64,000 nt of DNA from Escherichia coli (GTDB lineage: Bacteria > Pseudomonadota > Gammaproteobacteria > Enterobacterales > Enterobacteriaceae), in NCBI RefSeq assembly GCF_044324785.1, contig NZ_CP172127.1. One strand, 5' to 3'. Below are positions 12,919-53,245 of the stretch, one piece after another. A program made the position numbers and the translations under genes. The notes under the pieces were generated by a model. That model searched no databases. It had not been told where the DNA came from and was given only the letters and a program-made list of their open reading frames with translations. The first letter of the stretch is position 1; every line of letters starts with the position of its first letter.

Positions 12919-14451
12919 TCAGGTGCCGATTATGCCGCCGTCGGCTTTTACGATAACGACAGTTGAGGAGCGCGGACGACCAGCCTTATCGCCGTCAGGC
13001 CAGCTTGATACTGCCGTCGGATGCTGCGGATCGCTAAGCCCTTCGCTTGGCTCGCCAGGGTGCTGGATGTTAATAAACAGCGTCCGGTTATCCGGAGTGA
13101 ACGCGATGCCGGTGATTTCGCAGCCGCGCGGGCCGGTCAGGAAGCGGCGGAACTCATTGGTACCGGGGATCGTCGCCACCATCTGGTTGTTGCCCATGCC
13201 TTTGTAATCTTTAATATTTATGGTTGATGACGACACGTCGGTCTGGATCCATAGCACGCCGCGGTGATCAAAGCTCAGGCCATCGGCGCTGCCGAATTCC
13301 GCACCCTTCATGCTGCCTTTGGTTTCCAGTTTGTCTGTATCGGTGCGACCGCCCATCACAAGAATATCCCAGGCAAACTGCAGCGCGGTCGGGTCACCGT
13401 TATGCTCCAACCAGTGAATGATGTGGCCGTAAACGTTTTTGGCGCGCGGGTTGGCCGCATCCACTGGCGCTTTTCCTTCCTTACCGCGATCGCTGTTGTT
13501 GGTGAGCGTGCAGTAAACGCTGCCGGCGTGATATGGATCGACCGCAATCCACTCCGGGCGGTCCATTTTAGTGGCCCCCACGGCGTCTGCCGCCAGACGG
13601 GTTTTAATCAACAGGTCGCCCTGGTTTTCAAACCCTTTACTGGCGTCGAGCCCATTTTGTCCGAACACCAGCGGTAGCCACTCGCCTTTGCCGTCGTCGT
13701 TAAATTTCGCCACGTACAGAGTGCCTTTTTCCAGCAGGTGCATGTTGGCTTTGCGATCCTGCGGGTTGAATTTTCCTTCCGAGACAAATTTATATATGTA
13801 TTCGAATTTCTGGTCATCGCCCATATAGACCACAACGCGGTTATCCGGGGCAATTGTCACCGCTGCGCCTTCGTGTTTGATGCGACCAAGCGCGGTGTGC
13901 TTGCGCGGCACTGAATGCGGATCGTATGGATCGATTTCCACCACCCAGCCGAAGCGGTTCGGCTCGTTCGGCGTGGCGTCGACGCTGAACCTTTTATCCA
14001 CTTCGTTCCAGCGGTAAGAGTCGTCGCTCCCGCTGATACCGTAACGTTTTTCCAGCGGGTTCATCTCTGCTTTTTTTACGAAAATATCGGACCAGTTCTC
14101 TTCACACGTCAGATAGGTGCCCCACGGCGTAAATCCGTTGGCACAGTTCTGCATGGTGCCGAGAATGATTTCGCCTTTCGGATCGTCAACTGTTTGCATC
14201 AGTGGGTTATGCAGCGCCGGACCGGTGATTTTCATCGGCGTGTTAACGGTGATGCGGCGTGCGAACGATGACGGGCGCACCACTTCCCAGCCCAGGGGCA
14301 CTTTTTTTACTTCAATGACCGACACGCCCATCGCGTTCTGGCCTTTAAGAGCTTTATCGGCGCTCCAGTTGGCATCGCCATCTTTAAACAGTAGACCGTT
14401 ATCGATGTATTCATGGTTTATGGCAAGCAGGCCGTGATCGGAGCTGTTCCC
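12919..14451 (-). pseudogene. phoX: PhoX-family (DUF839-like) secreted phosphatase gene, 3' part, separated from its 5' part by the prophage
   Basis: Reading frame continues exactly from the fragment at 52793-53245 across the target-site duplication (...SLPQGGN | SSDHGLLAINHEY...); the first 16 codons of ORF 12919-14499 are phage-end derived. Confidence 0.65.
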
Positions 14452-14500
14452 TGATGCGCCGCGCGATAAATGCACTCTATCTTGTGCGATAAATGGCATC
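14452..14500. repeat. Prophage left terminus with two putative transposase-binding motifs
   Basis: GATAAATG at 14465-14472 and 14488-14495; mirrored at identical offsets at the right end. Confidence 0.6.
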
Positions 14501-14529
14501 CACGCGGCGTTTCATTATTTGAAAAAGAA

Positions 14530-15102
14530 TTACATTTCAGGTTGCGTTATGACAGTCCCAACAGGGTGGTAGCGGTAGATCGTTGACAGTCCAATATCAT
14601 AGATAATTGCCAGCCGCTTTCTGTCATACCCTTTCTGGAGCAATCTTGCGATCTGCTCATGCTGCTCCTTCGTCAGTTTCGGGCGACGTCCTCCAACTCT
14701 TCCTTGTGCTCGCGCAGCAGCCAGTCCTGCCAGCGTGCGCTCAACTATCAGTTCACGCTCCATTTCTGCCAGTGCACCCATCATATGAAAAAAGAACCTT
14801 CCCATCGGAGTGCTGGTATCGATTGAATCCGTCAGACTGCGAAAATTGACACCTTTTGCGCGTAGCTCTTCTGTGAGAGCAATGAGGTGTTTCATTCTTC
14901 TACCCAACCGATCCAGCTTCCAGACCACCAATGTATCCCCTCTTTTAAGGCACTTTAAAGCGCGTTTCAGGCCTGGTCGTTCCGACTTGGTTCCGCTCAT
15001 TTTGTCCTCAAAAATCTGTTCACATCCTGCGCACATTAATGCATTGCGTTGCAAATCTGTGTTTTGGTCATTTGTTGACACACGTATGTAGCCAATCAGC
15101 AT
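14530..15102 (-). CDS. pin: Site-specific DNA invertase, Hin/Gin/Pin serine recombinase family
   Basis: MLIGYIRVSTNDQNTDLQRNAL...GDTLVVWKLDRLGR...MGALAEMERELIVERT is the invertase catalytic domain plus C-terminal HTH; adjacent to tail-fibre cassettes. Confidence 0.9.
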   Translation of the reverse strand: MLIGYIRVSTNDQNTDLQRNALMCAGCEQIFEDKMSGTKSERPGLKRALKCLKRGDTLVVWKLDRLGRRMKHLIALTEELRAKGVNFRSLTDSIDTSTPMGRFFFHMMGALAEMERELIVERTLAGLAAARAQGRVGGRRPKLTKEQHEQIARLLQKGYDRKRLAIIYDIGLSTIYRYHPVGTVITQPEM

Positions 15103-15147
15103 TAAAAATACTCCCTTTTGAGTGGTTAAAGTACTGAGATAATGTGG

Positions 15148-15173
15148 GGAGGATTTGAGAGATAAACGTTGGT
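15148..15173. other. Putative invertase crossover site A (gix/pix-like), core AAACG-TT-GGTTT
   Basis: Core AAACGTTGGTTT at 15155-15166 at the start of the conserved ~200-bp fibre box; identical inverted core at 16779-16790. Confidence 0.45.
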
Positions 15174-15686
15174 TTAGGAGAAGGCTCGGCGCTACCCGTT
15201 GGTGTGCCTGTTCCGTGGCCCACCGCCACACCGCCAGCAGGCTGGTTAAAGTGCGACGGGCGCGCCTTTACAAAAGAACAATATCCTGTTCTGGCCAGAG
15301 TCTACCCGACCCTCCGTCTTCCCGATTTACGCGGTGAGTTTATCCGTGGATGGGACGACGGGCGCAAAGTTGATACAGGACGTAAGTTGCTGTCCGCACA
15401 AGGGGCAACGCTGTTAAGAACAGCAATGCTGGATTATTATAACCAGGACACTACGGGAACCTCGGGGATAGTCGGCATGGGATTCAACAATGAAGATTCC
15501 ATTACAGACCTTCGTGAGGGCAGCTTTAAAATGCCGGACGGGACAACATTCAGCGATCCTGTCGTGGCAATGTCAGACAATGGTATGCAGGCTACTATTC
15601 TGACCTCTATCAGAAGCGGGTATGCGAAGGGTATCACTGTCAGACCCCGTAGCATTGCACTTAATTACATTGTGAGGGCAGTTTAA
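15150..15686 (+). CDS. Tail-fibre C-terminal cassette 3 (start-less alternative variable domain)
   Basis: Frame opens after TGA at 15147-15149 with no ATG; encodes the conserved box GEGSALPVGVPVPWPTATPPAGWL...RGEFIRGWDDGRK then a unique C-terminus ending NYIVRAV. Confidence 0.7.
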
Positions 15687-16300
15687 TGAGTAACACTGCA
15701 GTTCTGGATGAAAACGGTATCGCCACTGTAGCGGGCGAGATCACTGTATATCACTATGACGAGGAAACCCGGGAATACACCTCATCCTCTGTGGAGTATC
15801 TCGCCCTTGGGGTGGGTACTCCGGCACATTCGTGCGCCGATGCACCGCCGGAGGCAATTTCGGGTTACGTGGTTTGCCGGACTGCCACGCTGAACGGGTG
15901 GGAGCATGTGCCTGATCACCGCGGCGAGACGGTATACAGCACGGAGAACGGTAACCCCGTTCTGATTACCCAACCGGGTGATTACCCGGCGGACACCACC
16001 ACAAAACAGCCGGCCACGCCATGGGATACCTGGAACGGTGAGGCGTGGGTAACCGATACTGAACGGCAGCGAGCCGCAGAACTGGAGGTTGCCAGACAGC
16101 AACGCCAGCAACGGGTGAAACAGGCGATGGCGTCCGTCGATCTTATCAACCTCAAACTGCGTGCTGGTCGCAGTCTGACACCAGAAGAAACGGCAAAACT
16201 GAACGCCGTGCTGGATTATATCGACGAGCTGAACGCACTGGATATCAGCACGGCACCTGAAATCAGCTGGCCGGAAGCGCCACTGGCACTTGCCAGCTGA
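15686..16300 (+). CDS. Tail fibre assembly protein (Tfa/U-like)
   Basis: ATG overlaps cassette-3 stop (TAATG); 204 aa, in the position and orientation of a Tfa chaperone for cassette 3. Confidence 0.65.
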   Translation: MSNTAVLDENGIATVAGEITVYHYDEETREYTSSSVEYLALGVGTPAHSCADAPPEAISGYVVCRTATLNGWEHVPDHRGETVYSTENGNPVLITQPGDYPADTTTKQPATPWDTWNGEAWVTDTERQRAAELEVARQQRQQRVKQAMASVDLINLKLRAGRSLTPEETAKLNAVLDYIDELNALDISTAPEISWPEAPLALAS

Positions 16301-16306
16301 ACGGTA

Positions 16307-16780
16307 TCACGCCGCCCTCACGATATAGTTAAACGCGATATTGCGGGGGCGGGTTATGTTAAAGAATGCTCCGTTTAATTCGGCTTTTGCGCGACTGTTT
16401 GTTCCACCCAGAATTGCGTACCACAAATAATCGCTACGGTAATTCCCCGCAAACACCTTATCGCCGCCATAGTCAATATTATTTCCGTTACTCATGTACG
16501 AGATATCCAGCGAAGAATCGTTATCGTCATGACCGCCGACCAGTGTACCTTTCTGCCATGAAAGCAACTTACGCCCCTCGTCAATCTTGCGCCCGTCGTC
16601 CCATCCACGGATAAACTCACCGCGTAAATCGGGAAGACGGAGGGTCGGGTAGACTCTGGCCAGAACAGGATATTGTTCTTTGGTGAACGTAGCTCCGTTG
16701 CACTGTAACCAGCCTGCTGGCGGTGTGGCGGTGGGCCACGGAACAGGCACACCAACAGGCAATGCAGAGCCTTCCCCCAA
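16307..16780 (-). CDS. Tail-fibre C-terminal cassette 2 (unfused alternative variable domain, TTG-initiated frame)
   Basis: Begins with the same conserved box as cassettes 1 and 3 but has a different distal sequence; lies directly after the main fibre stop in +1 frame. Confidence 0.55.
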   Translation of the reverse strand: MGEGSALPVGVPVPWPTATPPAGWLQCNGATFTKEQYPVLARVYPTLRLPDLRGEFIRGWDDGRKIDEGRKLLSWQKGTLVGGHDDNDSSLDISYMSNGNNIDYGGDKVFAGNYRSDYLWYAILGGTNSRAKAELNGAFFNITRPRNIAFNYIVRAA

Positions 16781-16798
16781 ACCAACGTTTTTATGCGG
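16773..16798. other. Putative invertase crossover site B (inverted relative to site A)
   Basis: + strand AAACCAACGTTT at 16779-16790 is the reverse complement of the site A core. Confidence 0.45.
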
Positions 16799-18719
16799 CC
16801 CTTACGATGTAATTAAACGCAACATTGCGGGGGCGCATTGATATCCATGCCCCGGTAAAATTATCCTCCGCTGTCCTTTGAATACCCGTTATAGAGTTAT
16901 CTGCTGATGCAGGAACATAATCGCTATTATTTCCTGCTTTAGGATTAGCTGGGTTTCCAACGGTTATAACAGAATCAGCAGTAGCAAAAGCGATACCTAC
17001 TTTGACATTAGTATTCAGATCGTAACCGTAATAATCCTGCAAAGCTGTACGAATAAATGTTGCAGCCTGACCACTTAGCAATGAACGCCCCGTATCAACT
17101 TTGCGCCCGTCGTCCCATCCACGGATAAACTCACCGCGCAAATCGGGAAGACGGAGGGTCGGGTAGACTCTGGCCAGAACAGGATATTGTTCTTTTGTAA
17201 AGGCGCGCCCGTCACACTTTAACCAGCCTGCTGGCGGTGTGGCGGTGGGCCATGGAACAGGCACACCAACAGGCAGTGCAGAGCCTTCCCCCAAACCAAG
17301 GTAATTGAGGACATCTTTTATACTGCCCTTAGCGATAATAGCGCGACCAATAGCTGTAAGGGTTGCCAGCGCTGCGCGGTCTGCTCCGGTAAAATAAGGC
17401 AACCGATCTGCTGCAGTGGCAAGTCCTGCCAGAGCAGTGAGCGTGGCATCTGCCGGTTGTTTTCCGTTTGCCAGATCGTATGCAGCCTTGACCGCTTTCG
17501 GTGTGGCGGCCAGTATTTCAGACGTGCTGTTGATGGCACTGCTCAATTGTATGGTGCCTTTTGCCGTCAGCGAGGCAGCAGGCACTCCCGTTATCTGACT
17601 CCACGGGTGAGTGTGGCTGACGGGCGCCTTGCCGGCTGCAAGGTCGTATGCAGCCTTGACCGCCTTCGGCGTGGCAGCCTCAGTTTCTGATTGACTGTCC
17701 GTGGCGCTGCTCAGTTGTACGGTGCCTTTTGCCGTCAGCGAGGCAGCAGGCACTCCCGTTATCTGACTCCACGGGTGAGTGTGGCTGACGGGGGCCTTGC
17801 CGGCAGCCAGGTCATATGCAGCCTTGACGGCCTTTGGTGTGGCGGCCAGCGTTTCAGAGGTGCTGTTGGTGGCACTGCTCAGTTGTACGATCCCTTTACG
17901 GGTCGTTGTTGCATCCTGGGCTGTGTATTTTCCCCGGGCCAGATCATACGCGATTTTCACAGCCTTCGGCGTGGCAGCCTCAGTTTCTGATTGACTGTCC
18001 GTGGCGCTGCTCAGTTGTACGGTGCCTTTTGCCGTCAGCGAGGCAGCAGGCACTCCCGTTATCTGACTCCACGGGTGAGTGTGGCTGACGGGGGCCTTGC
18101 CGGCAGCTAGGTCATATGCAGCCTTGACGGCCTTTGGTGTGGCGGCCAGCGTTTCAGAGGTGCTGTTGGTGGCACTGCTCAGTTGTACGATCCCTTTACG
18201 GGTCGTTGTTGCATCCTGGGCTGTGTATTTTCCCCGGGCCAGATCATACGCGATTTTCACAGCCTTCGGCGTGGCAGCCTCAGTTTCTGATTGACTGTCC
18301 GTGGCACTGCTCAGCTGTACGGTGCCTTTTGCCGTCAGCGAGGCAGCAGGCACTCCCGTTATCTGACTCCACGGGTGAGTGTGACTGACGGGTGCCTTGC
18401 CGGCTGCAAGGTCGTATGCAGCCTTGACGGCTTTTGGTGTGGCGGCCAGCGTTTCAGAGGTGCTGTTGGTGGCACTGCTCAGTTGGGTGAACCCCTTAGC
18501 TGTCAGTGTCGCGTCCGGGTGGTTACGGGAACGTACGTGTTCAGCCAGTGACTGTGCGGCTTCCTCCGTTTTTTTCTTCAGCCATTTCGTCCTGTTTGCC
18601 AGTTGCCGGGGGGCTCGATTTGATATCCCGTCAGCACCACCCAGAACCGGATCTGATGTCTCCAGTTGATAGATTTTTTCTTCCCACTTTTCTGTTTCAT
18701 TCAGGTTTCCCATAATCAA
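16791..18719 (-). CDS. Tail fibre protein (642 aa) with internal repeats and C-terminal cassette 1
   Basis: Repeated QLSSAT..SET.AATPKAVK.AYDLA.GK fibre repeat motif; C-terminal region carries the conserved box and ends NYIVRAA. Confidence 0.85.
   Translation of the reverse strand: MIMGNLNETEKWEEKIYQLETSDPVLGGADGISNRAPRQLANRTKWLKKKTEEAAQSLAEHVRSRNHPDATLTAKGFTQLSSATNSTSETLAATPKAVKAAYDLAAGKAPVSHTHPWSQITGVPAASLTAKGTVQLSSATDSQSETEAATPKAVKIAYDLARGKYTAQDATTTRKGIVQLSSATNSTSETLAATPKAVKAAYDLAAGKAPVSHTHPWSQITGVPAASLTAKGTVQLSSATDSQSETEAATPKAVKIAYDLARGKYTAQDATTTRKGIVQLSSATNSTSETLAATPKAVKAAYDLAAGKAPVSHTHPWSQITGVPAASLTAKGTVQLSSATDSQSETEAATPKAVKAAYDLAAGKAPVSHTHPWSQITGVPAASLTAKGTIQLSSAINSTSEILAATPKAVKAAYDLANGKQPADATLTALAGLATAADRLPYFTGADRAALATLTAIGRAIIAKGSIKDVLNYLGLGEGSALPVGVPVPWPTATPPAGWLKCDGRAFTKEQYPVLARVYPTLRLPDLRGEFIRGWDDGRKVDTGRSLLSGQAATFIRTALQDYYGYDLNTNVKVGIAFATADSVITVGNPANPKAGNNSDYVPASADNSITGIQRTAEDNFTGAWISMRPRNVAFNYIVRAA
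17286..17311. other. Putative crossover site C inside the main fibre gene (one half-site degenerate)
   Basis: Reverse complement reads TCAATTACC-TT-GGTTTGGGGGAA; right half conserved, left half diverged. Confidence 0.3.
17290..18510. repeat. Tandem ~300-bp coding repeats within the tail-fibre gene
   Basis: Shadow ORFs 17779-17994 and 18079-18294 are identical (300-bp period); 17834-18088 and 18134-18388 near-identical; protein shows about seven copies of a 45-55-aa motif. Confidence 0.75.
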
Positions 18720-19306
18720 CTGCTCCCGTGGTTATAACTGCCATCATGGATGGCGGTATTGTTATAGCGAATGGCCACAGACTGATACTCCAGGCTGGCC
18801 AGATGGCAGCGGGCCGGTGCAAATGCAGCGAGCGTCTGACGCAGCATCGCGGCCTGATCGTTAGTAATGGGCTGTTTCAGAATAACGCGATAAACCGCCC
18901 AGGCGGCTGCATCTCCATGAACAAACAGTCCGTTATAGCTGCGATTGCCGTCGTAACTGAGACGACCTGTGCCTTCAATCAGATCCACTTCACCAAAGCC
19001 AAAACGGCGGATAACTTCCCGGATTGACCACGGCGTCCCTTTATACCGGTGTAGTTCGATGGCTGCTTTTATAAGCATGCGGCGAACATCGTCCGATTCC
19101 GCCAGCTCCCAGCCATCGCCAGACAGTGAGAACTGCTCGCCCAGCCATGGCAGCGCAGAACTGTCGACGATATCGACGAGAAAGACCATCAGTACGCTCA
19201 GGTCGATGTTATCCAGCCGCCCTGCCAGTCTTCCCAGCGTCCTGAGACTGATATCACCCTCAAGCGGTGGCGGGAGTTGTAATGGCTCAGTCATCAGACA
19301 CTCCAC
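18716..19306 (-). CDS. Baseplate/tail protein, P2 gpI-like
   Basis: Position between baseplate J and tail fibre; size and context. Confidence 0.65.
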   Translation of the reverse strand: MECLMTEPLQLPPPLEGDISLRTLGRLAGRLDNIDLSVLMVFLVDIVDSSALPWLGEQFSLSGDGWELAESDDVRRMLIKAAIELHRYKGTPWSIREVIRRFGFGEVDLIEGTGRLSYDGNRSYNGLFVHGDAAAWAVYRVILKQPITNDQAAMLRQTLAAFAPARCHLASLEYQSVAIRYNNTAIHDGSYNHGSS

Positions 19307-20728: not shown

Positions 20729-20782
20729 GGGGGCAGTATTGCCCCCGTGCGGGAACGCTGATATTAAAGGCGTTTAAAAAGC

Positions 20783-43194: not shown

Positions 43195-43533
43195 TCAGCC
43201 TGCGAGTTTGCTTGGTTTGGGTTGAATGAAGACTTTGCCGACCTCAAGAATTGCCCTCCGTTGTTCGGGGCTCATTTCGTCGAATGCATCCATTAACTCT
43301 TTCTTTTCTTGTGACACATAAGGTGCAACAACAGGCTGACTCCGCACCCCAGTAACTACATACAAAATATCTACACCGATTTCTGATAGTGCAGATAACT
43401 GCACTGCAGTAGGAGAAGTGCGATCTTTTTCCCAATCAATGAAAGTTCTCTTTGCCACACCTATAGCATCAGCCAACCCTTGCTGTGTAAGAGATAGACG
43501 CTCTCTTTCTTCTTTAATACGTAACCCGATCAT
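43195..43533 (-). CDS. Phage repressor, HTH XRE/cI-type
   Basis: MIGLRIKEERERLSLTQQGLADAIGVAKRTFIDWEKDRTSP is a canonical XRE HTH; divergent from the early operon. Confidence 0.7.
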   Translation of the reverse strand: MIGLRIKEERERLSLTQQGLADAIGVAKRTFIDWEKDRTSPTAVQLSALSEIGVDILYVVTGVRSQPVVAPYVSQEKKELMDAFDEMSPEQRRAILEVGKVFIQPKPSKLAG

Positions 43534-43557
43534 GTGAGTTTTTCTGCACTCTTTAAG

Positions 43558-43586
43558 TTGACTGGTGAGGTAATCTGCACCATAAT
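43558..43586 (+). promoter_or_regulatory. Putative sigma70 early promoter with overlapping repressor operators
   Basis: -35 TTGACT (43558-43563), 17-bp spacer, -10 CATAAT (43581-43586); direct repeat TCTGCAC at 43543-43549 and 43574-43580. Confidence 0.4.
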
Positions 43587-43633
43587 CTATCACACATAAG
43601 GCAAACATCATTGCATCAACAAAGGAGACAACG

Positions 43634-43822
43634 ATGACTGCAGAACAAGTCAAAGCTCTCTTCCGCCAGCGCGGGATCACTTTCACCCGCTGGGCAGAAG
43701 AAAACGGCTACAACCGCAATGAGGTATACCGCGTTCTCAATGGGCAGACCAAAGCCCGTTACGGTAAATCCCATGAAATCGCCGTGAAGTTGGGGCTGAA
43801 ATCAACAGCTCAGGCAGCCTGA
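43634..43822 (+). CDS. Small DNA-binding protein (Ner-like position)
   Basis: 62 aa basic protein, first gene of the rightward early operon, divergent from repressor. Confidence 0.4.
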   Translation: MTAEQVKALFRQRGITFTRWAEENGYNRNEVYRVLNGQTKARYGKSHEIAVKLGLKSTAQAA

Positions 43823-43868
43823 AGATTTTGAGTCTTTGTAAAAGGTTATCACATATCGCAAAAGAGGT

Positions 43869-44183
43869 ATGCAGATGAGTAAGACGAATGTTTCAAGCTC
43901 CGGCAGTCGCATCCTCCGGGTACTCAAAGCGCTGCGCGGTCATGCCCTGAACGGTATTTCCAACGGTGAACTGGCGGCAGCACTGCACGAGTCACCGGCA
44001 AACATCAACCGGGCACTCAACACCCTCATTGAAGAAGGGTTGGCCCTGAAACTGGAAAACGGGCGTTTCGCGCCGGGCATCCAGTTACTGCAGATCGCTA
44101 TGGCCCACAGTAACGAGATGGCACGTGCACAGGATCGCATTAACGAAATCAACCAACGTGTCATTTCAGGTAGTCGTTTGTAA
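43869..44183 (+). CDS. Putative winged-helix DNA-binding regulator (104 aa)
   Basis: ILRVLKALRGHALNGISNGELAAALHESPANINRALNTLIEEGL resembles a wHTH. Confidence 0.4.
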   Translation: MQMSKTNVSSSGSRILRVLKALRGHALNGISNGELAAALHESPANINRALNTLIEEGLALKLENGRFAPGIQLLQIAMAHSNEMARAQDRINEINQRVISGSRL

Positions 44184-44193
44184 GGAGTAATAA

Positions 44194-45105
44194 ATGGGAC
44201 GCACCAAATCACCGATTAACACTGAACTGAACGCCGAGGTACCGCTGTCGGATGATCTCAATGTCAGTCTGAACGCCATGACACAGCATCGTATGGAGAT
44301 CATGCAGCAGTTTGGCGATGGTCAGCCCTATGAGCGTGATCGCATAGTTCATGAGGCTCGGTTTTATATGGCACAGAGCGCTGAGGCCATGCTGGAAGCA
44401 GGTAAACGACTTATTATTCTCAAAGAAAATGAACCTCACGGGGACTTTGTTGGAATTGTAGAAGAACAACTTGGTCTGCATGTGCGCGCAGCACAACGAA
44501 TGATGAAAGCATCTTTGAAATACCTTTCACCAAAACTAGAGCCAAAAGCGACAACGTTGTCGCTTTTAGGTAAGGCAAAATTATTTGAACTTGTTGCTGA
44601 AGATGACGACGACCTTGCTGAACTGGCCGACGGTGGCACAGTTGCCGGACTGACGCTTGACGATGTTGATCGCATGTCAGTACGTGAATTGCGTCAGGCC
44701 CTGCGCGAAGCGCGCGAAACCAACGCAGCACAACAGCGCGTACTCGCCGACAAAAATGAAAAAATAGACTCACTCTCCACCAGACTGGAGAAGAAATCCC
44801 GTATTCAGCCACCTGAGCCTGATGAAGAGGTGAAGAAACTGCGGGCAGAAGTGACCGCGTTAGCGGTTGAGGCGGAATCTGCCATCGCCGTTCGACTGTC
44901 CAGCGCTTTTGAGACGCTGTGCGCATATTGTGCTGAAAACATGATTGATACCCCCAGAGACTTCATGGCAGGCCTGGTCTGTCAACTGGAAAGCACAGCG
45001 CGTAGCCTGCGCTCCACATTTGACCTGCCGGACGAGCCAACAGGCAATGCAGCGCCTTCATGGCTGACTGAGCCGACGCCACAGATTAACGGGCTGGAGG
45101 CATAA
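44194..45105 (+). CDS. Hypothetical early protein (303 aa), possibly DUF3102-like
   Basis: Acidic, coiled-coil-rich; located just upstream of transposase A. Confidence 0.4.
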   Translation: MGRTKSPINTELNAEVPLSDDLNVSLNAMTQHRMEIMQQFGDGQPYERDRIVHEARFYMAQSAEAMLEAGKRLIILKENEPHGDFVGIVEEQLGLHVRAAQRMMKASLKYLSPKLEPKATTLSLLGKAKLFELVAEDDDDLAELADGGTVAGLTLDDVDRMSVRELRQALREARETNAAQQRVLADKNEKIDSLSTRLEKKSRIQPPEPDEEVKKLRAEVTALAVEAESAIAVRLSSAFETLCAYCAENMIDTPRDFMAGLVCQLESTARSLRSTFDLPDEPTGNAAPSWLTEPTPQINGLEA

Positions 45106-45108
45106 CCA

Positions 45109-46878
45109 ATGAATGCTGCCCTGACTGAACGACTGGTTTATGTCGCCCGCGCGGCACGTGACGCGGGGCATGGTAAACGCGGCGCAGTATACGACGCTGC
45201 CTGTGCTGAACTTGGCATGTCCCGCGCCACTCTGCTGCGCAGGCTGAAGGAGGTATCTGTGACTGATAAACGCAAAAAACGCGCCGATGCCGGGCGCAGC
45301 GCCCTGACCCGCGACGAAGCCGCGCTGATATCTGCCACACTGCGTGAGGCCACCCGCAAGAACGGTAAGCGTCTCTATTCCATCGCGGATGCAGTGGAAA
45401 CCCTGCGGGCTAACGGCTTTATATCCGCAGGCAGAACAGATGAAACCACCGGTGAGTTTTTCCCGTTGTCCGAAGATGCCATCAGCCGAGCCCTGCGTAA
45501 CTATGGCCTGCACCCGGAACAACTGGATGCCCCTGCGCCGCATACCGAAGTGGCCAGTCTGCATCCCAATCATGTCTGGCAGATTGACGCCTCACTCTGC
45601 ACGCTTTACTACCTGAGCAATGGACATAAAGGGCTGCAGGTGATGGACAGCGCGAAGTTCTACAAGAACAAGCCCGCTAACCTTGCCCGTATCGCCAGTG
45701 ACCGCGTGTGGAGTTACGAGATTACCGACCATGCCAGCGGCTGGATTTACGTTGAGTATGTGACGGGCGCGGAATCAGGTGAGAACCTGTGTTCTGTGCT
45801 TATCAACGCCATGCAGGAGCGTGGCGGCGCAGACGTGCTGCACGGTGTGCCGAAAATACTCTATCTCGACCCCGGCTCGGCAAACACCGCGGGTATGACG
45901 AAAAACATGTGCCGCTCACTGGGCATCGACCTGATAGCGCACAAGCCGCATAACGCCCGCGCCACCGGACAGGTGGAAAAGGCGCGGGACATTATCGAAC
46001 GCAAGCTGGAGCCGGGTCTGAAGTTCCGGCCGGTTCACAGTCTGGAAGAACTCAACGCGCTGGCCGCGAAATGGCGCAGCCACTTTAACGCCACGGCTGT
46101 TCACAGCCGCCACGGTAAAACCCGCACGGATATCTGGCTGAAGATTACTGCTGAGCAGCTGAAAAAAGCGCCTTCCGTTGAGGTATGTCGTGAACTGGCT
46201 GTGGCGGCACCAGAACTCCGCAAAGTCACGCCAAAACTTCGTGTCTCGTTCCGGGGCACTGAATTTGACGTATCAACGGTACCGGGCGTACTGGTTGGTG
46301 AAAAACTGATGATTACCCGTAACCCGTGGCGCAGCGATGTGGCACAGGTGGTTCTGACCGGTGAGGACGGCCACGAGACGTTCTTCCTGGTCGAAGAGGT
46401 CAGAAAGAACGAGTTTGGCTTTGCTGAAGGCGCGGCGGTATTTGGCGAAAGTTACAAAGCCCTGCCGGAAACCCCGGCGCAGATGGCGGCAAAAGAAACC
46501 GAAGCGCTGGTCACCGGTACAGACAACGCCGCAGATGCAGCTGCCGCACGCAAGGCGAAGGCGCTGCCGTTCGGCGGGCGGCTTGACCCGTATAAACATA
46601 TCGACGACACCACACTTCCGGCCTATATGCCGAAGCGTGGTCAGGCCTCTGACGTACGCGGGCCGCGCACTGAACAACGTCCCATGACTTATGTGGAGGC
46701 CGCGAAAGCCCTGCGCGATAAGTTCAGCGCCAACGGCTTTACCTGGACGCTGGAACATTACCGCCAGTTAACGGCACAGTATCCGGACGGCGTACCGGAA
46801 GCCGCACTGGATGAAGTCATGGCCACGCTGACCACGCCGGCCCGCAGCAGCGTTATCAGTATTGTTAACGGCAACTGA
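45109..46878 (+). CDS. Mu-type DDE transposase (A protein)
   Basis: 589 aa with integrase-core region (HVWQIDASL...) followed by the B-like ATPase gene. Confidence 0.8.
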   Translation: MNAALTERLVYVARAARDAGHGKRGAVYDAACAELGMSRATLLRRLKEVSVTDKRKKRADAGRSALTRDEAALISATLREATRKNGKRLYSIADAVETLRANGFISAGRTDETTGEFFPLSEDAISRALRNYGLHPEQLDAPAPHTEVASLHPNHVWQIDASLCTLYYLSNGHKGLQVMDSAKFYKNKPANLARIASDRVWSYEITDHASGWIYVEYVTGAESGENLCSVLINAMQERGGADVLHGVPKILYLDPGSANTAGMTKNMCRSLGIDLIAHKPHNARATGQVEKARDIIERKLEPGLKFRPVHSLEELNALAAKWRSHFNATAVHSRHGKTRTDIWLKITAEQLKKAPSVEVCRELAVAAPELRKVTPKLRVSFRGTEFDVSTVPGVLVGEKLMITRNPWRSDVAQVVLTGEDGHETFFLVEEVRKNEFGFAEGAAVFGESYKALPETPAQMAAKETEALVTGTDNAADAAAARKAKALPFGGRLDPYKHIDDTTLPAYMPKRGQASDVRGPRTEQRPMTYVEAAKALRDKFSANGFTWTLEHYRQLTAQYPDGVPEAALDEVMATLTTPARSSVISIVNGN

Positions 46879-46888
46879 GGAGGGAAAC

Positions 46889-48055
46889 ATGCTGGTACTG
46901 AAGCAGCAACTGAAAGAAGCCCGTATTCCACAGGCGGTGGTGGCGAGAGCTGTCGATGTTTCTGAGGCCACGCTGGCCCAGATTGTGAATCATAACGCGT
47001 GGCCCCGCACCAGCCCCGGAGAAGTGCGCCGGCGTCTTGCGTCCTGGCTGGAAAGTCAGGGGATTGATACAACGAAGAGTTTTGATGCTGTACAGGGCGC
47101 GGCCACGCCCCGTACAGCGGGTACCACAGATAAAACGAGCCTCAGTGAGGAAGAGAATATGTTACTCAAAAAACAGGTGTTATTTCCAGCAACCAAAAAA
47201 GCGTTTGGTCTTTTCCGTGACCCGTTCGCCGACGAAGCCATGCAGGGTTCTGATGATGTGTTCACCACCCCGGATATTCGCTACGTGCGTGAGGCGTTGT
47301 ACCAGACAGCCCGTCATGGTGGGTTTATGGCCGTCATCGGTGAGTCCGGTGCGGGTAAATCCACGCTGCGCCGCGACCTGACTGAACGTATCAACCGCGA
47401 GAATGCGCCGGTAATTGTTATCGAGCCATACATCATCGCTATGGAAGACAACGATGTGAAAGGGAAAACCCTGAAGGCAGCAGCGATTGCCGAAGCCATT
47501 ATCAGTACCATCGCACCACTGGAAAGCATCAGACGCAGTCAGGACGCCCGCTTTCGCCAGTTGCATCGCGTCCTGAAAGACAGCAGCCAGGCGGGGTTCA
47601 GCCACGTTCTGGTGATTGAGGAGGCCCACAGTCTGCCCATTCCGACACTGAAACACCTCAAACGCTTTTTTGAGCTGGAGTCCGGTTTCAAAAAACTGCT
47701 GTCCATCGTGCTGATTGGCCAGCCGGAACTGGCGACAAAACTGTCTGAACGCAATATGGAAGTCCGTGAAGTCGTTCAGCGCTGTGAGGTGGTCGAACTT
47801 CTGCCTCTGGACAATAACCTTGAAGAGTTTCTGACGTTCAAACTGCAACGGGCCGGTAAACAACTGACGGACATTATGGACGCCAGCGCAGTGGATGCCA
47901 TACGTGCCCGCCTGAGCAATCCGGGAAGTCATCGTAAAAATATGGTCAGCCTGCTGTATCCGCTGGCCGTCAGTAACCTGGTAATAGCCGCCATGAATCT
48001 GGCCGCTGAAATCGGGGTTCCACAGGTCAACGCTGACGTTGTCAAAGGGGTTTAA
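46889..48055 (+). CDS. Transposition ATPase (MuB-like AAA+ target DNA activator)
   Basis: Walker A VIGESGAGKST, Walker B-like HVLVIEEAH; SD GGAGGG before ATG. Confidence 0.8.
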   Translation: MLVLKQQLKEARIPQAVVARAVDVSEATLAQIVNHNAWPRTSPGEVRRRLASWLESQGIDTTKSFDAVQGAATPRTAGTTDKTSLSEEENMLLKKQVLFPATKKAFGLFRDPFADEAMQGSDDVFTTPDIRYVREALYQTARHGGFMAVIGESGAGKSTLRRDLTERINRENAPVIVIEPYIIAMEDNDVKGKTLKAAAIAEAIISTIAPLESIRRSQDARFRQLHRVLKDSSQAGFSHVLVIEEAHSLPIPTLKHLKRFFELESGFKKLLSIVLIGQPELATKLSERNMEVREVVQRCEVVELLPLDNNLEEFLTFKLQRAGKQLTDIMDASAVDAIRARLSNPGSHRKNMVSLLYPLAVSNLVIAAMNLAAEIGVPQVNADVVKGV

Positions 48056-48057
48056 TA

Positions 48058-48327
48058 ATGAAATCCACCACAGGTATCAACCAGCAAATCAGCAAAGTGC
48101 AGTCAGCCATTATGGCGCTTAAGGCGACGAACACGGATGTACAAAGCATCACCATCAGGGGTAACAAACCTGTCATCCGCGTTTCCCGGAGTGCGCATTG
48201 CATGCGCATGCTTGAGCAGGGAAAGGCCTGTTATCTGTATACCGGTCATGACCACAGGGGACATTTCCGTCAGGGCGTTTTCGAACTGCACGGCTGTCGC
48301 GTCGTGTGGCCGGAATCTTTGTGGTAA
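48058..48327 (+). CDS. Hypothetical early protein (89 aa)
   Basis: Coupled to B stop. Confidence 0.4.
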   Translation: MKSTTGINQQISKVQSAIMALKATNTDVQSITIRGNKPVIRVSRSAHCMRMLEQGKACYLYTGHDHRGHFRQGVFELHGCRVVWPESLW

Positions 48328-48354
48328 TCAGCACAACAGGAGGAGTCATAAAAT

Positions 48355-48885
48355 ATGGCAAAAAGTACAAAAGGGGCAAAACGTATCAAAGCCGCAGCAG
48401 CACTCTGGGTGCCGGGGACACGCGAAGAGGTCATTGAGGGAATCAGACTGCTTGGTGACGCGCAACGTGAACTGGTCAGGGCTGAAACAGAAATGAATGA
48501 CACCATTGGCGACATCACCGCACGTTATGCCCCGCTCACCGAGAGCCTGAAAAAACGCATGGCCGAACTGCAGTCCGGTATTCAGACATGGTGTGAGGCA
48601 CACCGTGATGAACTGACCGGCAACGGGAAGGTGAAGTTCGCTAACCTCACCACCGGCGAGGTGCAGTGGCGAAACCGTCCGCCGTCAGTCAGTATCCGTG
48701 GGGCGGATAATGTTATTGAATTACTGAGACGTCTGGGGCTTGAGCGCTTTATCCGTGTAAAGGAGGAAATAAATAAAGACGCCATCCTGAATGAAAAGGA
48801 CGCCGTGAAAAATATTCCCGGTATTACCATAAAAAGTGATATTGAGGATTTTTCAATAATTCCTTTTGAGCAGAATGTGCAGTAA
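48355..48885 (+). CDS. gam: Host-nuclease inhibitor Gam
   Basis: 176 aa closely matching Mu Gam along its length (AKRIKAAAALWVP...IGDAQRE...ETEMND...WCEAHRDELT...IRVKEEINKDAIL...DFSIIPFEQ). Confidence 0.85.
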   Translation: MAKSTKGAKRIKAAAALWVPGTREEVIEGIRLLGDAQRELVRAETEMNDTIGDITARYAPLTESLKKRMAELQSGIQTWCEAHRDELTGNGKVKFANLTTGEVQWRNRPPSVSIRGADNVIELLRRLGLERFIRVKEEINKDAILNEKDAVKNIPGITIKSDIEDFSIIPFEQNVQ

Positions 48886-48981
48886 AAACAGCATATAAGC
48901 TATTTAAAACAGCCTTTTCTTTTTTATTCCGGCATCAGCGCCGTGGGCTTCTGCACGCCGGAAACAGAGGAGAATTAAATC

Positions 48982-49176
48982 ATGATATTTAAATGTATTC
49001 AGTGCGAGAGGGATATAACAGCCCTGCGTTTTCACAGCGCCATCGCCGTGATGTCCGGTAAGTACCACGTACCTGCAGTACGCGTCACCCTGGTCTGTCC
49101 GTACTGCAGTCAGCATTTTTCGGCAGACGTGCCCGTCATGGAATTCTCCCGCCCTGACAGGGAGGACTCGCAATGA
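48982..49176 (+). CDS. Small zinc-ribbon protein (64 aa)
   Basis: Two CxxC pairs (CIQC ... CPYC). Confidence 0.4.
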   Translation: MIFKCIQCERDITALRFHSAIAVMSGKYHVPAVRVTLVCPYCSQHFSADVPVMEFSRPDREDSQ

Positions 49177-49445
49177 TTACCCCACAGGAAGCACGACAGC
49201 GCACCCGAACCCTTGTTGAACACTATGTCAACGAGTGTGAATGCCGCGACCTCACCGATGTGAAGCACGTCCTGACGGCGCTAATCAGCATGACCGCTCA
49301 GGCCATTGTGGCGACCAACGGAAAGGCGGCTGCCCTGCAGGTACTGGTGAACACACTCACCCACACGGCAGAGCACGATGTGCCGTACCGGATGGAAACC
49401 ACTGCAGAAGGCGGCCTGAACATCACCGTCGACCGGAAACACTGA
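49173..49445 (+). CDS. Hypothetical early protein (90 aa)
   Basis: Coupled ORF. Confidence 0.4.
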   Translation: MITPQEARQRTRTLVEHYVNECECRDLTDVKHVLTALISMTAQAIVATNGKAAALQVLVNTLTHTAEHDVPYRMETTAEGGLNITVDRKH

Positions 49446-49454
49446 GGGCGCGGC

Positions 49455-49760
49455 ATGACACGGAACACCGAACTCACCCGCACCGCCCTCTACCGTCTGG
49501 CCCTGCAGCGTTTCGGGCCGGACGCACAGGCCCTGAAACTGACAGAAGAGGCCGCTGAACTGGCGGCCAGTGCCGCCCGCAACCTGAACGGACAGGGCAG
49601 CGAAAGTGACCTCGCGGCAGAGCTGGCAGACGTGGAAATCATGACAGAGCAGCTGCGCCTTCAGGGAATGGACCGGCTGATTGACTTCCACAAACAGAAA
49701 AAACTGGAACGCCTTGCCGCACGGCTGGGCGTCATGTACACCGGAGATACTGAACAATGA
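49455..49760 (+). CDS. Small MazG-like nucleotide pyrophosphohydrolase-type protein (tentative)
   Basis: 101 aa helical protein with EEAAELAA...AELADVEIM pattern reminiscent of MazG-type NTP-PPase. Confidence 0.4.
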   Translation: MTRNTELTRTALYRLALQRFGPDAQALKLTEEAAELAASAARNLNGQGSESDLAAELADVEIMTEQLRLQGMDRLIDFHKQKKLERLAARLGVMYTGDTEQ

Positions 49761-50440
49761 CAGACCAGGATAAACACATTGAGAAACTGAAAAAGTTGCT
49801 GGCGCTGGCCGCATCCGGCAACCCTCACGAGGCCGCTCTGGCACTGCGCCGTGCCCGTAAACTGATGGATGTTCACGGCATCACACATTCCGACATCGCC
49901 ATGAGTGATATTGATGAAACCATCAGTCACTACTGGCCGACAGGCAGCCTCCGTCCACCGCGCTACATGCTGGGCCTGATGAACATCATCCGCGAGGCAT
50001 TTGGTGTTAACTCCATCATTCACCCCGGCACATATCCGGGTGTGGGGTTCTACGGCAACCGGGAACGGGCTGCACTGGCTGCGTACACCTGGGAAGTGCT
50101 GGCCCGCCAGCTGAAAAAGGCGCGTCAGCAATATATCAGCGCACAGAACAAAAGAATAAAAACTGCCACCCGTACCAGCCGTGGTGACCAGTTTGCTGAA
50201 GGCTGGGTGCTGGCCGTTATCAGTGAAATACAGTCCTTCGCCCTGACCGATGACGAACGTGAACTGATGCAGCAGTGGCTGGAACATAAATACCCGCAGA
50301 CGCAAACCACCAGGGCGCGTAAACCGGGAAGAAGCCGCAATGGCGACGCCTCGCGCTATGCGGGGTTTCTTGAAGGGCAGAACGTCAGACTGCACCGCCC
50401 GGTCAGTGGGCAGGAACAACAGAAACTGGAGGCCAGATGA
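49757..50440 (+). CDS. Hypothetical early protein (227 aa), DUF2786-like N-terminus
   Basis: N-terminal IEKLKKLLALAASGNPHEAALALRRARKLM pattern. Confidence 0.45.
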   Translation: MTDQDKHIEKLKKLLALAASGNPHEAALALRRARKLMDVHGITHSDIAMSDIDETISHYWPTGSLRPPRYMLGLMNIIREAFGVNSIIHPGTYPGVGFYGNRERAALAAYTWEVLARQLKKARQQYISAQNKRIKTATRTSRGDQFAEGWVLAVISEIQSFALTDDERELMQQWLEHKYPQTQTTRARKPGRSRNGDASRYAGFLEGQNVRLHRPVSGQEQQKLEAR

Positions 50441-50667
50441 TTACGCTATCAGGTAAAAGCCGGAAATTAAAAGCCTGCCGAATATCTGCCAGATACCTTT
50501 TTGCCCGCGCCTTTTTTAAGAACGTCAGGCCGGGGATCACAATTGGTGTTATTGCCGGACGCGAACAGGTTGAAAAATACATGTCAGGTGCATGGTGGAA
50601 TAACGACCCTGTCATTGCTGCCCGTAATATTCATATCAGTTGGGGGGATATTCAGAATGACGGCTGA
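50437..50667 (+). CDS. Hypothetical small protein (76 aa)
   Basis: Coupled ORF. Confidence 0.3.
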   Translation: MITLSGKSRKLKACRISARYLFARAFFKNVRPGITIGVIAGREQVEKYMSGAWWNNDPVIAARNIHISWGDIQNDG

Positions 50668-50872
50668 ATCTGTTGTATGTGCCCTGTTCTGGTATTGTTT
50701 TGTCGGTTGGTGTACTGCTGAACTGCACCGCCGTTCAGGGTTTTATTCACGTTACAGTGGTGCTGGCTACTGGATTAGCTGGTCGGTGATGTTCCTGTGC
50801 TGGCCTGTGGCGCTTCCTTTATATGTCGATTATATCGGTGGCGCAGGTAAAAGGAGCAACGATGATGACTAA
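50664..50872 (+). CDS. Small membrane protein (2 TM)
   Basis: VVCALFWYCFVGWC and WSVMFLCWPVALPLYV hydrophobic segments. Confidence 0.35.
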
Positions 50873-51314
50873 ACAACGTCTTATCCAGCTCATTCATATT
50901 GCCCGTAATGAACTGGGTATGGATGAAGACACCTACCGCCAGATGTTACAGGGGCTGACCGGTAAAGCCTCAACCAAAGGAATGGATACCACACAACTAA
51001 ACTGCGTGCTGGAATCCATGAAAAGGAAAGGCTTTCGCGTTAAGCCTGCCGGAAAAGCCAGCTCCGGTTTACCGCTGGATAACCATCCGCAGTCCAGGAA
51101 AATCCGTGCGCTATGGCTTGAAATGGCTGCTGCCGGCATTGTTCGTGACCGTTCAGAAAATGCATTAGCGCGGTGGATCAAGCGGGAAACGGGCATCAGC
51201 GCCCTGCGCTGGCTCAGTACTGAACAGGCAAGCAGTGTTATTGAGAAACTGAAGAAGTGGCAGCGCAGAGCTGCGGGAGTCAAACATGAGCGACCTGAAT
51301 CAGTTTCGAAGTAA
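50862..51314 (+). CDS. gemA: GemA-like regulatory protein (Mu gp16 family)
   Basis: SD AGGAG before ATG; position immediately before Mor; size ~150 aa. Confidence 0.6.
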   Translation: MMTKQRLIQLIHIARNELGMDEDTYRQMLQGLTGKASTKGMDTTQLNCVLESMKRKGFRVKPAGKASSGLPLDNHPQSRKIRALWLEMAAAGIVRDRSENALARWIKRETGISALRWLSTEQASSVIEKLKKWQRRAAGVKHERPESVSK

Positions 51315-51684
51315 AGGGCCGGAACTCCTGGTGGAGCTGGCACAGCATACCTCTGAGACCGTTCGCGAGATTATTGATATTGAGCCCGCAATTGCCGACC
51401 AGATTGGTCAGGCCGTCGCGAACCGAATGATGCAGGTCTGGGGCGGGCAAAACGTTTATTTCCCGATGGGCATGGTATGGAAGGTCAGTCAGCGCGACCG
51501 GGAAATCTTCAGGGAGTTTAACGGACGCAACCACCACGAACTGGCCCGCAAGTTTGGTGTTTCGCTTCAGTGGGTCTACAGCGTGGTTAAGCGGGTCAGA
51601 AAAGAAGAACTGGATCGGATGCAGGGCAGGTTGTTTGATGAAGATCTGCCAGAGGAGACGAAAGACGTTAACAAATCCAGATAA
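51286..51684 (+). CDS. mor: Mor-like middle-operon transcriptional activator
   Basis: C-terminal ...VYFPMG...REIFREFNGRNHHELARKFGVSLQWVYSVVKR matches the Mor/C family HTH. Confidence 0.7.
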   Translation: MSDLNQFRSKGPELLVELAQHTSETVREIIDIEPAIADQIGQAVANRMMQVWGGQNVYFPMGMVWKVSQRDREIFREFNGRNHHELARKFGVSLQWVYSVVKRVRKEELDRMQGRLFDEDLPEETKDVNKSR

Positions 51685-51730
51685 TTCCTGCTTGTTAAAG
51701 TCCTTTCAAAAATCTCCTTATTGTATAAAA

Positions 51731-51760
51731 GCACGGTAGACCCCTTACCGTGCTTTTTTT
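51731..51760 (+). terminator. Rho-independent terminator after mor
   Basis: Perfect 8-bp stem GCACGGTA/TACCGTGC, 7-nt loop, followed by TTTTTTT (51754-51760). Confidence 0.65.
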
Positions 51761-51798
51761 ATGCTCTCTCTTTAGTATTCAGGATGCAGGGAGAAAAT

Positions 51799-52431
51799 AT
51801 GTTTGACGTTTCGTTGTTAAATCTGCCATGGGCAACACTGGTGACCCTGACCAGTGGCTATATTGGGTATTTTATTGCGAATGTGGGACTGAAGGATCAC
51901 CACAAGCCCATTGAGGTGACTTTTTCTTCGCTGATTTTTGGCCTGACAGCAATGATGGCTTACCAGGCTGTTATGTGGGCAGGTCTGAATGCCTGGCTGG
52001 CAACACCACCAGCACTTCTGTGTGCCGTTACATGCGGTGCGTGGTGGCGCAGGTACGGTCGCAAATGGATGTACAGATTACTGTGGAATAATGATATTTC
52101 ATGGTCTGACGATACCAGCTCAGCATGGCAGGCAATGTTTGATCAAACAGGCTTCAGCGTTACCGAGGTCAGAGTGATTCTTCGCGATGGTTCCGGTATG
52201 ATGTCACGGCTGCCAGGGAACTTTGAAGAGTGGCCTAACGGTCCGTTTACCCTGGGGAATAAAGGCGATATGGTTCTTTACGTCACGCACAGCAGCCCTT
52301 CAGGCAGTAACGAATGGGAAGAGTATAAAGGCGTGGTTGATAAGTACTGGGGAGCTCTGGCAACCTATATTCCAGCAGATCAGATTGCCAGAGTGGAGAT
52401 CAGGCGCGTTCGTGCAACGAACGATGAATGA
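51799..52431 (+). CDS. Membrane-anchored protein (211 aa), candidate moron / superinfection-exclusion factor
   Basis: Own SD (GGGAGA) after the mor terminator; N-terminal TM helices (WATLVTLTSGYIGYFIANVGL, FSSLIFGLTAMMAYQAVMWAGL) plus soluble C-terminal domain; last gene before the prophage right end. Confidence 0.55.
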   Translation: MFDVSLLNLPWATLVTLTSGYIGYFIANVGLKDHHKPIEVTFSSLIFGLTAMMAYQAVMWAGLNAWLATPPALLCAVTCGAWWRRYGRKWMYRLLWNNDISWSDDTSSAWQAMFDQTGFSVTEVRVILRDGSGMMSRLPGNFEEWPNGPFTLGNKGDMVLYVTHSSPSGSNEWEEYKGVVDKYWGALATYIPADQIARVEIRRVRATNDE

Positions 52432-52744
52432 TGTTTATTTTTTCCCTGGGGCAGGGGCTGCCGGCATAGTGGTTTTATTGGCAGAGGAAGACGATTCTCC
52501 TTTTCTACCGGAATCGCGCTCGAACGTCACGATGTGCTTGCTTTTGGGCTTTTCTGAGTAATCCAGGCTATCATGCTTATTGTTTTGAGTAGTCATTGGA
52601 ATCATCCTTTTTGTTGCGGGTCATGTTTCAGCAAACTCGATTCTAAGTTGCCAGGAAGGATGATTTCAATGCCCGACTTATCTATCGTATAGCGGAAAAG
52701 AATTTCAGTTCTGTTCACCAGAACCCATGTTAACCCACTCCAAT

Positions 52745-52792
52745 TCGTTATTTATCTCACGGATCCCCCTTCATTTATCTCATGTCTGATCA
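52745..52792. repeat. Prophage right terminus with two putative transposase-binding motifs (inverted relative to left end)
   Basis: Reverse complement reads TGATCAGACATGAGATAAATGAAGGGGGATCCGTGAGATAAATAACG; motifs at + 52772-52779 and 52749-52756. Confidence 0.6.
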
Positions 52793-53245
52793 GTTCCCGC
52801 CCTGCGGCAGGCTAAACCACGCCATGCCGTCGTGGTGCATCCCGGCCTGCGCCGCCTGTTCTTCCGTGGTGTTGCTACCGTCGGTTTTAAAAACCGGCAG
52901 ATTTCCGGCAATCCCGGTGGCGTCGCCCCATTTGTAGAAGGGCTTCGCGATGTATCCTTCCGGCACGATAACGGTATCTTCCGTGGAAACCGGCAGGCTG
53001 GTGAAACCGAGCGTCGTCGCTTTGCCGAGGTTACCGCTTGCTTTGGAGACCACTTTCGCCAGCGCGTTTTCCTGTTTCAGCAGAAATGGGAACGCTGCCG
53101 CGGCACCGGCGACCGTGCCTGCCTGTAACAGACGGCGGCGTGACAAATAGACTTCCGCCACCTGCGAAAACGCGCGGTTATCGCTCGGGTTACTGATTTC
53201 TTCACTATGCTCACGTTTGAATAAAGTTTTTAACGGTCTGCCCAT
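52793..53245 (-). pseudogene. phoX: PhoX-family secreted phosphatase gene, 5' part (Tat signal), separated from its 3' part by the prophage
   Basis: Twin-arginine motif SRRRLLQAGTVAGAAAAFPF; frame terminated by TGA supplied by the prophage terminal TGATCA. Confidence 0.65.

Follow-up and report, generated by a model that had tools for sequence, protein, structure and literature searches.

Why are the two ends of a phoX-like phosphatase gene found on either side of some 38 kb of phage genes in Escherichia coli contig NZ_CP172127.1, and can this locus still give rise to PhoX? A first-pass annotation proposed that a prophage had split the gene in frame and so inactivated a phosphate-scavenging enzyme. 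We analyzed the whole stretch of 64,000 nucleotides (nt), hereafter the window, to whose positions all coordinates refer. With very high confidence, we attribute the arrangement to the transposition of a temperate phage into phoX, which would have split the gene so that PhoX is no longer made.

Reconstruction of the interrupted gene

Reading both junctions together with the lists of open reading frames (ORFs) placed the two fragments and the insert, to the base, where the first-pass annotation had put them (Table 1). The insert opens with TGATGCGCC at 14452 and closes with GTCTGATCA at 52792. On the minus strand, the 5′ fragment is an ORF (52790-53245) of 151 aa, which opens with MGRPLK and closes with AWFSLPQGGN followed by TGA. 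This stop codon (52790-52792) is phage DNA, as had been claimed, being the reverse complement of the final three bases of the phage terminus TGATCA (52787-52792). The 3′ frame, also on the minus strand, opens at the insert boundary (14451) with GNSSDHGLLAINHEY and is closed by a stop codon at 12919-12921.

When 14452-52798 (the insert plus 6 bp) was excised in silico, the two parts joined in a single ORF of 659 aa, with the junction reading AWFSLPQGGNSSDHGLLAINHEY. Excision of the insert plus only 5 bp shifted the frame and gave 30 stops, so the flanking repeat, first described as GTTCC(C), is the 6-bp GTTCCC and not GTTCC. The gene is split in frame because this duplication amounts to 6 bp, or two codons. 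The halves of any coding region that this phage enters stay in frame, and although the frames do join as proposed, this is a trivial outcome without further biological meaning.

The restored protein matched the Pfam PhoX model (PF05787) over model positions 2-515 of 515 (residues 80-615, E 1.2e-165), while none of the NCBIfam models matched it. It aligned in one stretch with the structures PDB 3ZWU, of P. fluorescens PhoX (residues 70-658, E 2e-167), and PDB 4AMF (residues 78-658), and both alignments span the junction residues 151/152. Relative to 3ZWU there is a 3-residue indel right where the insert lies, and colinearity was therefore also judged from closer relatives; a search of 5.8 billion proteins returned full-length homologues of 650-660 aa, with 65-96% identity and 100% query coverage. 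Like P. fluorescens PhoX (3ZWU, 4A9V), the E. coli protein, which is known from its sequence, has the blocks NCANGxTPWGTYLTCEEN, MDRPEWI, and IQHPGE, those around the active-site region aligning identically, as well as a twin-arginine signal at the N-terminus; it differs in the indel and in several small loops. In the 151-aa ORF the twin-arginine motif S-R-R-R-L-L, already noted in the first-pass annotation, is followed by a hydrophobic stretch, and the match to the Pfam TAT_signal model is weak (residues 34-53, E 0.016). The start codon agrees with that of the RefSeq gene in strain VTB97420v. By PF05787, 3ZWU, and the full-length homologues, the restored gene belongs to the PhoX family, and the protein is colinear with that family across the junction.

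The empty site in related strains

We searched a set of 5,426 complete E. coli genomes with a 346-bp query over the restored junction and found an uninterrupted gene, annotated as 'PhoX family protein', in 98 of them (94 at an identity of at least 99%). In E. coli, phoX is an accessory gene, carried by 1.8% of the complete genomes. As the empty-site comparator we used VTB97420v (NZ_CP178690.1). Its sequence matches 14.4 kb of the window on one side of the insert and 11.2 kb on the other with 99.97-100% identity, and the two matches have precisely 6 bp in common, the single GTTCCC. Both flanks are also contiguous, with an overlap of exactly 6 bp, in NZ_CP054388.1 and NZ_AP045764.1, so the restored ORF and the empty site occur in the genomes of related strains, where the first-pass annotation had suggested that the site might be sought. 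NZ_CP027118 was set aside as a comparator, as it has only a 3.3-kb phoX module in common with the window.

The restored gene showed no differences over 1980 nt from the intact gene for WP_000533456.1 in NZ_CP178690.1, an agreement far beyond chance. Since the two are identical, phoX was whole until the insertion, which is its sole lesion. Across 25.6 kb of host DNA the window and VTB97420v differ by only 3 substitutions, besides the 2.5-kb IS66-family element ISEc23, which VTB97420v carries at a place equivalent to window positions 11547-11562 and the window does not. To judge from these sequences, the two strains are very closely related, with mobile-element insertions setting them apart.

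Consequences for the host

The events at this locus can be put as follows. A temperate phage of the BcepMu/B3 lineage would have inserted itself at codons 150-151 of a phoX gene that was intact and lay on an island, its DDE transposase carrying out the strand transfer, and the filling-in of a staggered 6-bp cut would have left GTTCCC on either side of the 38,341-bp prophage. One of the resulting pieces is a 151-aa N-terminal stub with the twin-arginine translocation (Tat) signal and the first mature part, ended by the TGA of the phage terminus; the other is a fragment for residues 152-659 without the gene's own promoter and signal peptide. The stub keeps the Tat signal and, of the structure-aligned region, about the first 80 residues; the other 508 residues are separated from it. 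With a stop codon and 38 kb of DNA between the Tat signal and residues 1-151 on one side and residues 152-659 on the other, PhoX presumably cannot be made, and the loss of its activity is strongly indicated. E. coli also has PhoA. Prophages of the Mu type are not known to excise when induced, and by analogy the insertion would be stable. The genes directly downstream of phoX are already pseudogenes, so polarity is irrelevant.

Several points weigh against this account. The inactivation of the gene and the loss of activity are read from the sequence, and the correctness of the assembly is deduced from the perfect structure of the junctions and from independent contigs (see below). A role of PhoX in phosphate starvation in E. 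coli would be an extrapolation from other species, and a scan of the 300 nt preceding phoX gave no 18-mer that matched the Pho box consensus CTGTCATAAAACTGTCAT with 6 or fewer mismatches; a degenerate TTGTTAT-ATTT-CCGTAAC in this upstream region, picked out by eye, was unconvincing as a Pho box. Of the proposed inactivation of a phosphate-scavenging enzyme gene, the inactivation thus stands as a sound reading of the sequence, while the phosphate role is borrowed and lacks a canonical Pho box. Moreover, no terminator-like site lies between gin, the gene for a Gin-like DNA invertase near one end of the prophage, and the phage end, so that read-through into phoX is conceivable.

This last point bears on two alternatives. 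The insertion may not have been neutral, either because the loss of PhoX was selected in the lineage, the basis offered being that the neighboring iron-transport genes of the phoX island are already pseudogenes, or because a gin-driven fusion of 526 aa acts as a partly active cytoplasmic enzyme. We consider this very unlikely. The more specific proposal, that outward transcription from gin drives the fusion ORF and yields a truncated cytoplasmic PhoX with residual or new activity, draws on the position of gin, which is on the same strand as the phoX 3′ fragment and is transcribed outward, toward it, and on an in-frame start codon (ATG, 14499) that happens to lie within the phage end and extends the fragment into an ORF of 526 aa (12919-14499, minus strand). 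Nevertheless, no Shine-Dalgarno-like sequence is visible upstream of this ATG. If expressed, the product would be cytoplasmic, without the Tat signal and the N-terminal 149 residues, and about 80 residues of the folded domain would be missing (the structure alignment begins at residue 70). Members of the PhoX family are Tat-exported, Fe/Ca-dependent phosphomonoesterases, which need export and their Fe/Ca cofactor. We therefore hold a retained function to be highly improbable and keep to the reading in which the insertion abolished PhoX.

For annotation, this means that the two PhoX fragments belong together in a single interrupted pseudogene, and that the 38.3-kb interval is to be entered as a single transposable prophage, intact and flanked by 6-bp duplications. 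The empty alleles (VTB97420v and related strains) and the occupied ones (the window and public run ERR13187251, described below) also offer a natural isogenic pair for the accessory PhoX in extraintestinal/avian E. coli.

Correctness of the assembly

A chimeric join of a phoX contig with a prophage from elsewhere in the genome could produce the same picture. The phage is multi-copy in some genomes, with up to 3 places per genome in one search and up to 5 in others, and the 5,426 complete genomes contain neither phoX/phage junction. However, both junctions lie exactly at the phage termini seen in other genomes and show a perfect 6-bp target duplication, which a misjoin would not create. In addition, the same phoX::prophage allele is present in run ERR13187251, where separate, independent Logan contigs cross both junctions at 99.8-100% identity; this run may come from the source strain itself or from a close relative. 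We thus give an assembly artefact hardly any credence.

Four other Logan contigs, from unrelated runs (L018-L021), break off 0-2 nt from phoX codon 151, so that their product equals the 151-aa stub. We rejected them as evidence of insertion: two continue with 'A' or 'AG', as the intact allele does, and two end at GGGAAC. Such endpoints were most likely selected for by the look-up itself, which asked for proteins of this exact length.

Identity of the prophage

The closest sequenced phage was Escherichia phage PhiKM, which is placed in Bcepmuvirus in GenBank, with 96.6% nucleotide identity over 90% of 28000-52792. Megablast of these 24.8 kb returned no Burkholderia phage at that level, and no more sensitive whole-genome comparison was run. 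Against a 38,342-bp copy at another locus in AREA_487 the identity was ~99.6%. All 51 annotated coding sequences of the AREA_487 prophage outside an invertible segment are intact in the window, and the single indel (48908) is intergenic, so the prophage is complete and looks functional.

Genes were called from PHROG and Pfam scans, with some annotations carried over from the AREA_487 prophage. Besides the genes listed in Table 1, the scans identified terminase, portal, and contractile tail sheath genes, and the element also has GemA; PADLOC, run on the unannotated prophage ORFs, returned nothing but a Dam-type methyltransferase. In tblastn comparisons the transposase was 68% identical to that of BcepMu over 98% of its length and 57% identical to that of B3, and none of its 69 matches among 50,697 phage records belonged to Mu or D108 (E ≤ 1e-5). 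The ExeA-family ATPase encoded beside it is, by analogy, its predicted transposition partner, in the position held by MuB in Mu. The late genes run on the minus strand toward 14452, and the early genes (43634-52431) run on the plus strand toward their own genome end at 52792. On this gene content we identify the insert as a complete transposable phage of the BcepMu/B3 lineage.

With BcepMu and its relatives (phiE255, PhiKM, and Klebsiella phage KP12) the prophage shares the transposase lineage, an ExeA-like ATPase adjoining the transposase, an early operon that runs toward the nearby end (in NC_005882, the BcepMu transposase gene occupies 4.7-6.5 kb, minus strand), and the combination of Mu-like head genes with P2-like contractile tail genes. 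It differs from BcepMu in its host, E. coli, in the absence of megablast-level similarity to Burkholderia phages, and in carrying a Gin invertase with a multi-cassette invertible fiber segment. Pseudomonas phage B3 has a transposase of the same lineage and the same 6-bp footprint (PMC8705779). B3 is nevertheless a siphovirus with a flexible tail and another late region, and only its transposition module is related.

Mode of integration

To what extent does this phage choose its site? Its gin-side end was found in 596-679 of the 5,426 genomes (654 places in the 596), which makes BcepMu-type phages common, with about 11% of complete E. coli genomes carrying them. The Mor-side end, at an identity of at least 95%, was present in only ~200 genomes, or in 310 when matches of 80-90% were included, with 109 places on plasmids; the differing distributions of the two ends suggest mosaic relatives or shared end modules.

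Three full copies at other loci (L003, which is the AREA_487 copy, L004, and L005) have TG...CA ends flanked by the 6-bp duplications CATCCC, TTCCGC, and ATTCCA, so that a 6-bp duplication lies outside the TG...CA ends in four of four full copies, the window's included. These three copies were picked from a ranking that favored likeness to the window flank, and a 'TCC' target motif, suggested by the resemblance of their hexamers to GTTCCC, was discarded as an artefact of that ranking. Ten further junctions, an unbiased spread sample obtained with a phage-only query, had the unrelated hexamers ACCCGC, ATTTGT, GCAGAC, CGAAGA, GCACGA, AACTGG, TCTCGA, CCCCAC, GCACGG, and GAAGAA. All 14 junctions, with that of the window, therefore have different flanking hexamers. 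In seven of the ten unbiased junctions a host gene is cut: a MaoC-domain gene, rstB, an EAL-domain gene, zraS, the alanine racemase gene, ssuB, and the tail tip gene of another prophage. Breakage of host genes is thus routine for this phage. Read from the gin-side end, the hexamers show a weak trend, with C at −3 in 9 and G at −2 in 8 of the 14, four of which were chosen with bias; with so small a number of sites, there may be a weak preference for a central CG, reminiscent of Mu.

A 6-bp duplication is the footprint of phage transposases of the B3/Tn552 family, as opposed to 5 bp for Mu (PMC8705779). The length of BcepMu's own duplication was not found in open-access text, and KS10, of a different lineage, has no flanking repeat. 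The scattered sites and the constant 6-bp duplication point to integration by transposition rather than by site-specific recombination, and the insertion recognized in the first-pass annotation, which is real, is better described as that of a transposable BcepMu/B3-lineage phage able to insert almost anywhere.

Site-specific integration, with an integrase, a GTTCC/GTTCCC att core, and phoX as a dedicated attachment site, would fit the short direct repeats at the ends of the element, which could resemble an att core. It has virtually no chance of being correct: scans of the prophage gave only the DDE transposase and the Gin invertase, with neither a tyrosine nor a large-serine integrase, the site is free of the phage in all 98 complete genomes with phoX, and the 14 insertions, at 14 different hexamers in unrelated genes, refute it. 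A classical Mu-type insertion by MuA with a 5-bp GTTCC duplication, brought to mind by the TG...CA ends, by Gam, Mor, GemA, Gin, and the invertible fiber segment, and by head genes that are annotated as Mu-like in PhiKM, can be practically dismissed, as removal of 5 bp breaks the frame, the empty site shows exactly 6 bp duplicated and four of four full copies agree, the transposase matches those of BcepMu and B3 and not those of Mu or D108, and the early operon runs toward the nearby end as in BcepMu, opposite to Mu.

Membership of the Mu family is thereby refuted, while the mechanistic analogy stands. Like the BcepMu/B3-lineage prophage described here, coliphage Mu transposes near-randomly into host genes, has TG...CA ends and a short target duplication, leaves stable null alleles, and possesses Gam, Mor, GemA, and a switch of the Gin/G-segment type; it differs in its 5-bp duplication, in the MuA/MuB pair, and in an early operon that points away from the left end, whereas the prophage has 6 bp and an inverted early region. 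That transposable phages mutate their hosts has been in the textbooks since Mu, and neither the mechanism nor either of the two families is new; the phoX insertion is a real but ordinary case that raises no new biological question; it documents BcepMu-type phages as common in E. coli and as routine breakers of host genes.

Termini, invertible segment, and surrounding island

Table 1. Coordinates of the phoX fragments, the prophage, and neighboring features in the window.
Feature	Position	Strand	Basis or comment
phoX 5′ fragment, codons 1-151	52793-53245	-	Long n-region, twin-arginine motif SRRRLL, start of mature domain
phoX 3′ fragment, codons 150-659 and stop	12919-14451	-	Codons 150-151 are the duplicated GN
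Target-site duplication, copy 1, GTTCCC	14446-14451	strandless	Junction reading; empty site has one copy
Target-site duplication, copy 2, GTTCCC	52793-52798	strandless	Junction reading; empty site has one copy
Complete BcepMu-like transposable prophage, 38,341 bp	14452-52792	strandless	TG...CA termini
Terminal repeats GCGATAAAT x2	14463-14471, 14486-14494	+	nt 12-20 and 35-43 from gin-side end; sequence comparison
Gin-like serine DNA invertase	14530-15102	-	PHROG 125 'DNA invertase', E 1e-95; 100% identical to WP_000904922.1
Invertible tail-fiber segment	15164-17302	strandless	Inverted-repeat search; PHROG tail fiber and fiber assembly matches
Dam-type adenine methyltransferase	42314-43078		PADLOC MTase_II, E 6e-113
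Helix-turn-helix repressor-like regulator, divergent from early operon	43195-43653	-	PHROG repressor and CII-like families; AREA_487 'helix-turn-helix domain-containing protein'
DDE (rve-type) transposase, 589 aa	45109-46878	+	PHROG 310 'transposase', E 9e-147; Pfam rve, residues 152-282
ExeA-family ATPase	46889-48055	+	PHROG 296 'DNA transposition protein', E 1.5e-93; identical AREA_487 protein 'ExeA family protein'
Gam-like protein (DNA-end protection / host nuclease inhibitor)	48355-48885	+	PHROG 491, E 3.6e-73
Mor-family late/middle transcription activator	51286-51684	+	PHROG 532; AREA_487 'Mor transcription activator family protein'
Terminal repeats GAGATAAAT x2	52773-52781, 52750-52758	-	nt 12-20 and 35-43 from Mor-side end; sequence comparison
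Iron ABC transporter remnants (ATP-binding and permease), frameshifted/truncated	11599-12822	-	Annotation transferred from VTB97420v
IS3-type transposase pseudogenes	53888-54591, 55043-55372		Mapped from VTB97420v
IS5, intact	55495-56475		Mapped from VTB97420v
Integrative and conjugative element (ICE) genes with internal stops	57752-59118		Mapped from VTB97420v
iha siderophore receptor/adhesin gene, intact	60052-62139	-	Mapped from VTB97420v
IS630	window edge		Mapped from VTB97420v

Both termini of the prophage carry two G(C/A)GATAAAT repeats, with the same spacing at either end and in inverted orientation. Such terminal GNGATAAAT repeats are candidate binding sites for the transposase. The Mor-side terminus TGATCA includes GATC, and the phage encodes a Dam-type methyltransferase; the other terminus, TGATGC, has no GATC.

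The invertible segment is bounded and divided by three repeat copies of ~230-274 bp, one at 15164-15439 and two inverted relative to it at 16560-16790 and 17029-17302. It holds alternative C-terminal cassettes of the fiber, whose gene occupies 16791-18719, and a fiber-assembly gene (15686-16300). Three alternative fiber tips of ~80 aa were recognized, ending at 16791, at 16307, and, on the other strand, at 15686. Whereas the G segment of Mu is a simple two-state switch, this prophage thus appears to have a multi-cassette system. In AREA_487 the segment has the opposite orientation at 99.9% identity, and the two sequences, taken together, provide what we read as direct evidence that the Gin switch acts in nature. 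Two self-similar blocks (17656-18485 and 24233-25028) correspond to repeats of ~300 bp in the tail-fiber gene and ~261 bp in the tape-measure gene. The length of the latter varies by copy, with 1070 aa in the window and in AREA_487 against genes of 2,952 nt in L004 and L005.

Finally, the island that harbors phoX is a mosaic riddled with insertion sequences (ISs). On one side it contains a type I restriction system, rhuM, mobI, and ICE remnants; on the other there are IS remnants, IS5, ICE pseudogenes, and iha. The region 53888-64000 is a heavily decayed island. The iron-transporter remnants lie directly downstream of phoX and thus adjoin the gene for an iron-dependent phosphatase. In strain 26561, the source of the comparator set aside above, the same 3.3-kb phoX module lies in a different tRNA-Phe island, beside pap fimbrial genes, and the iron-transporter module has traveled there with phoX.

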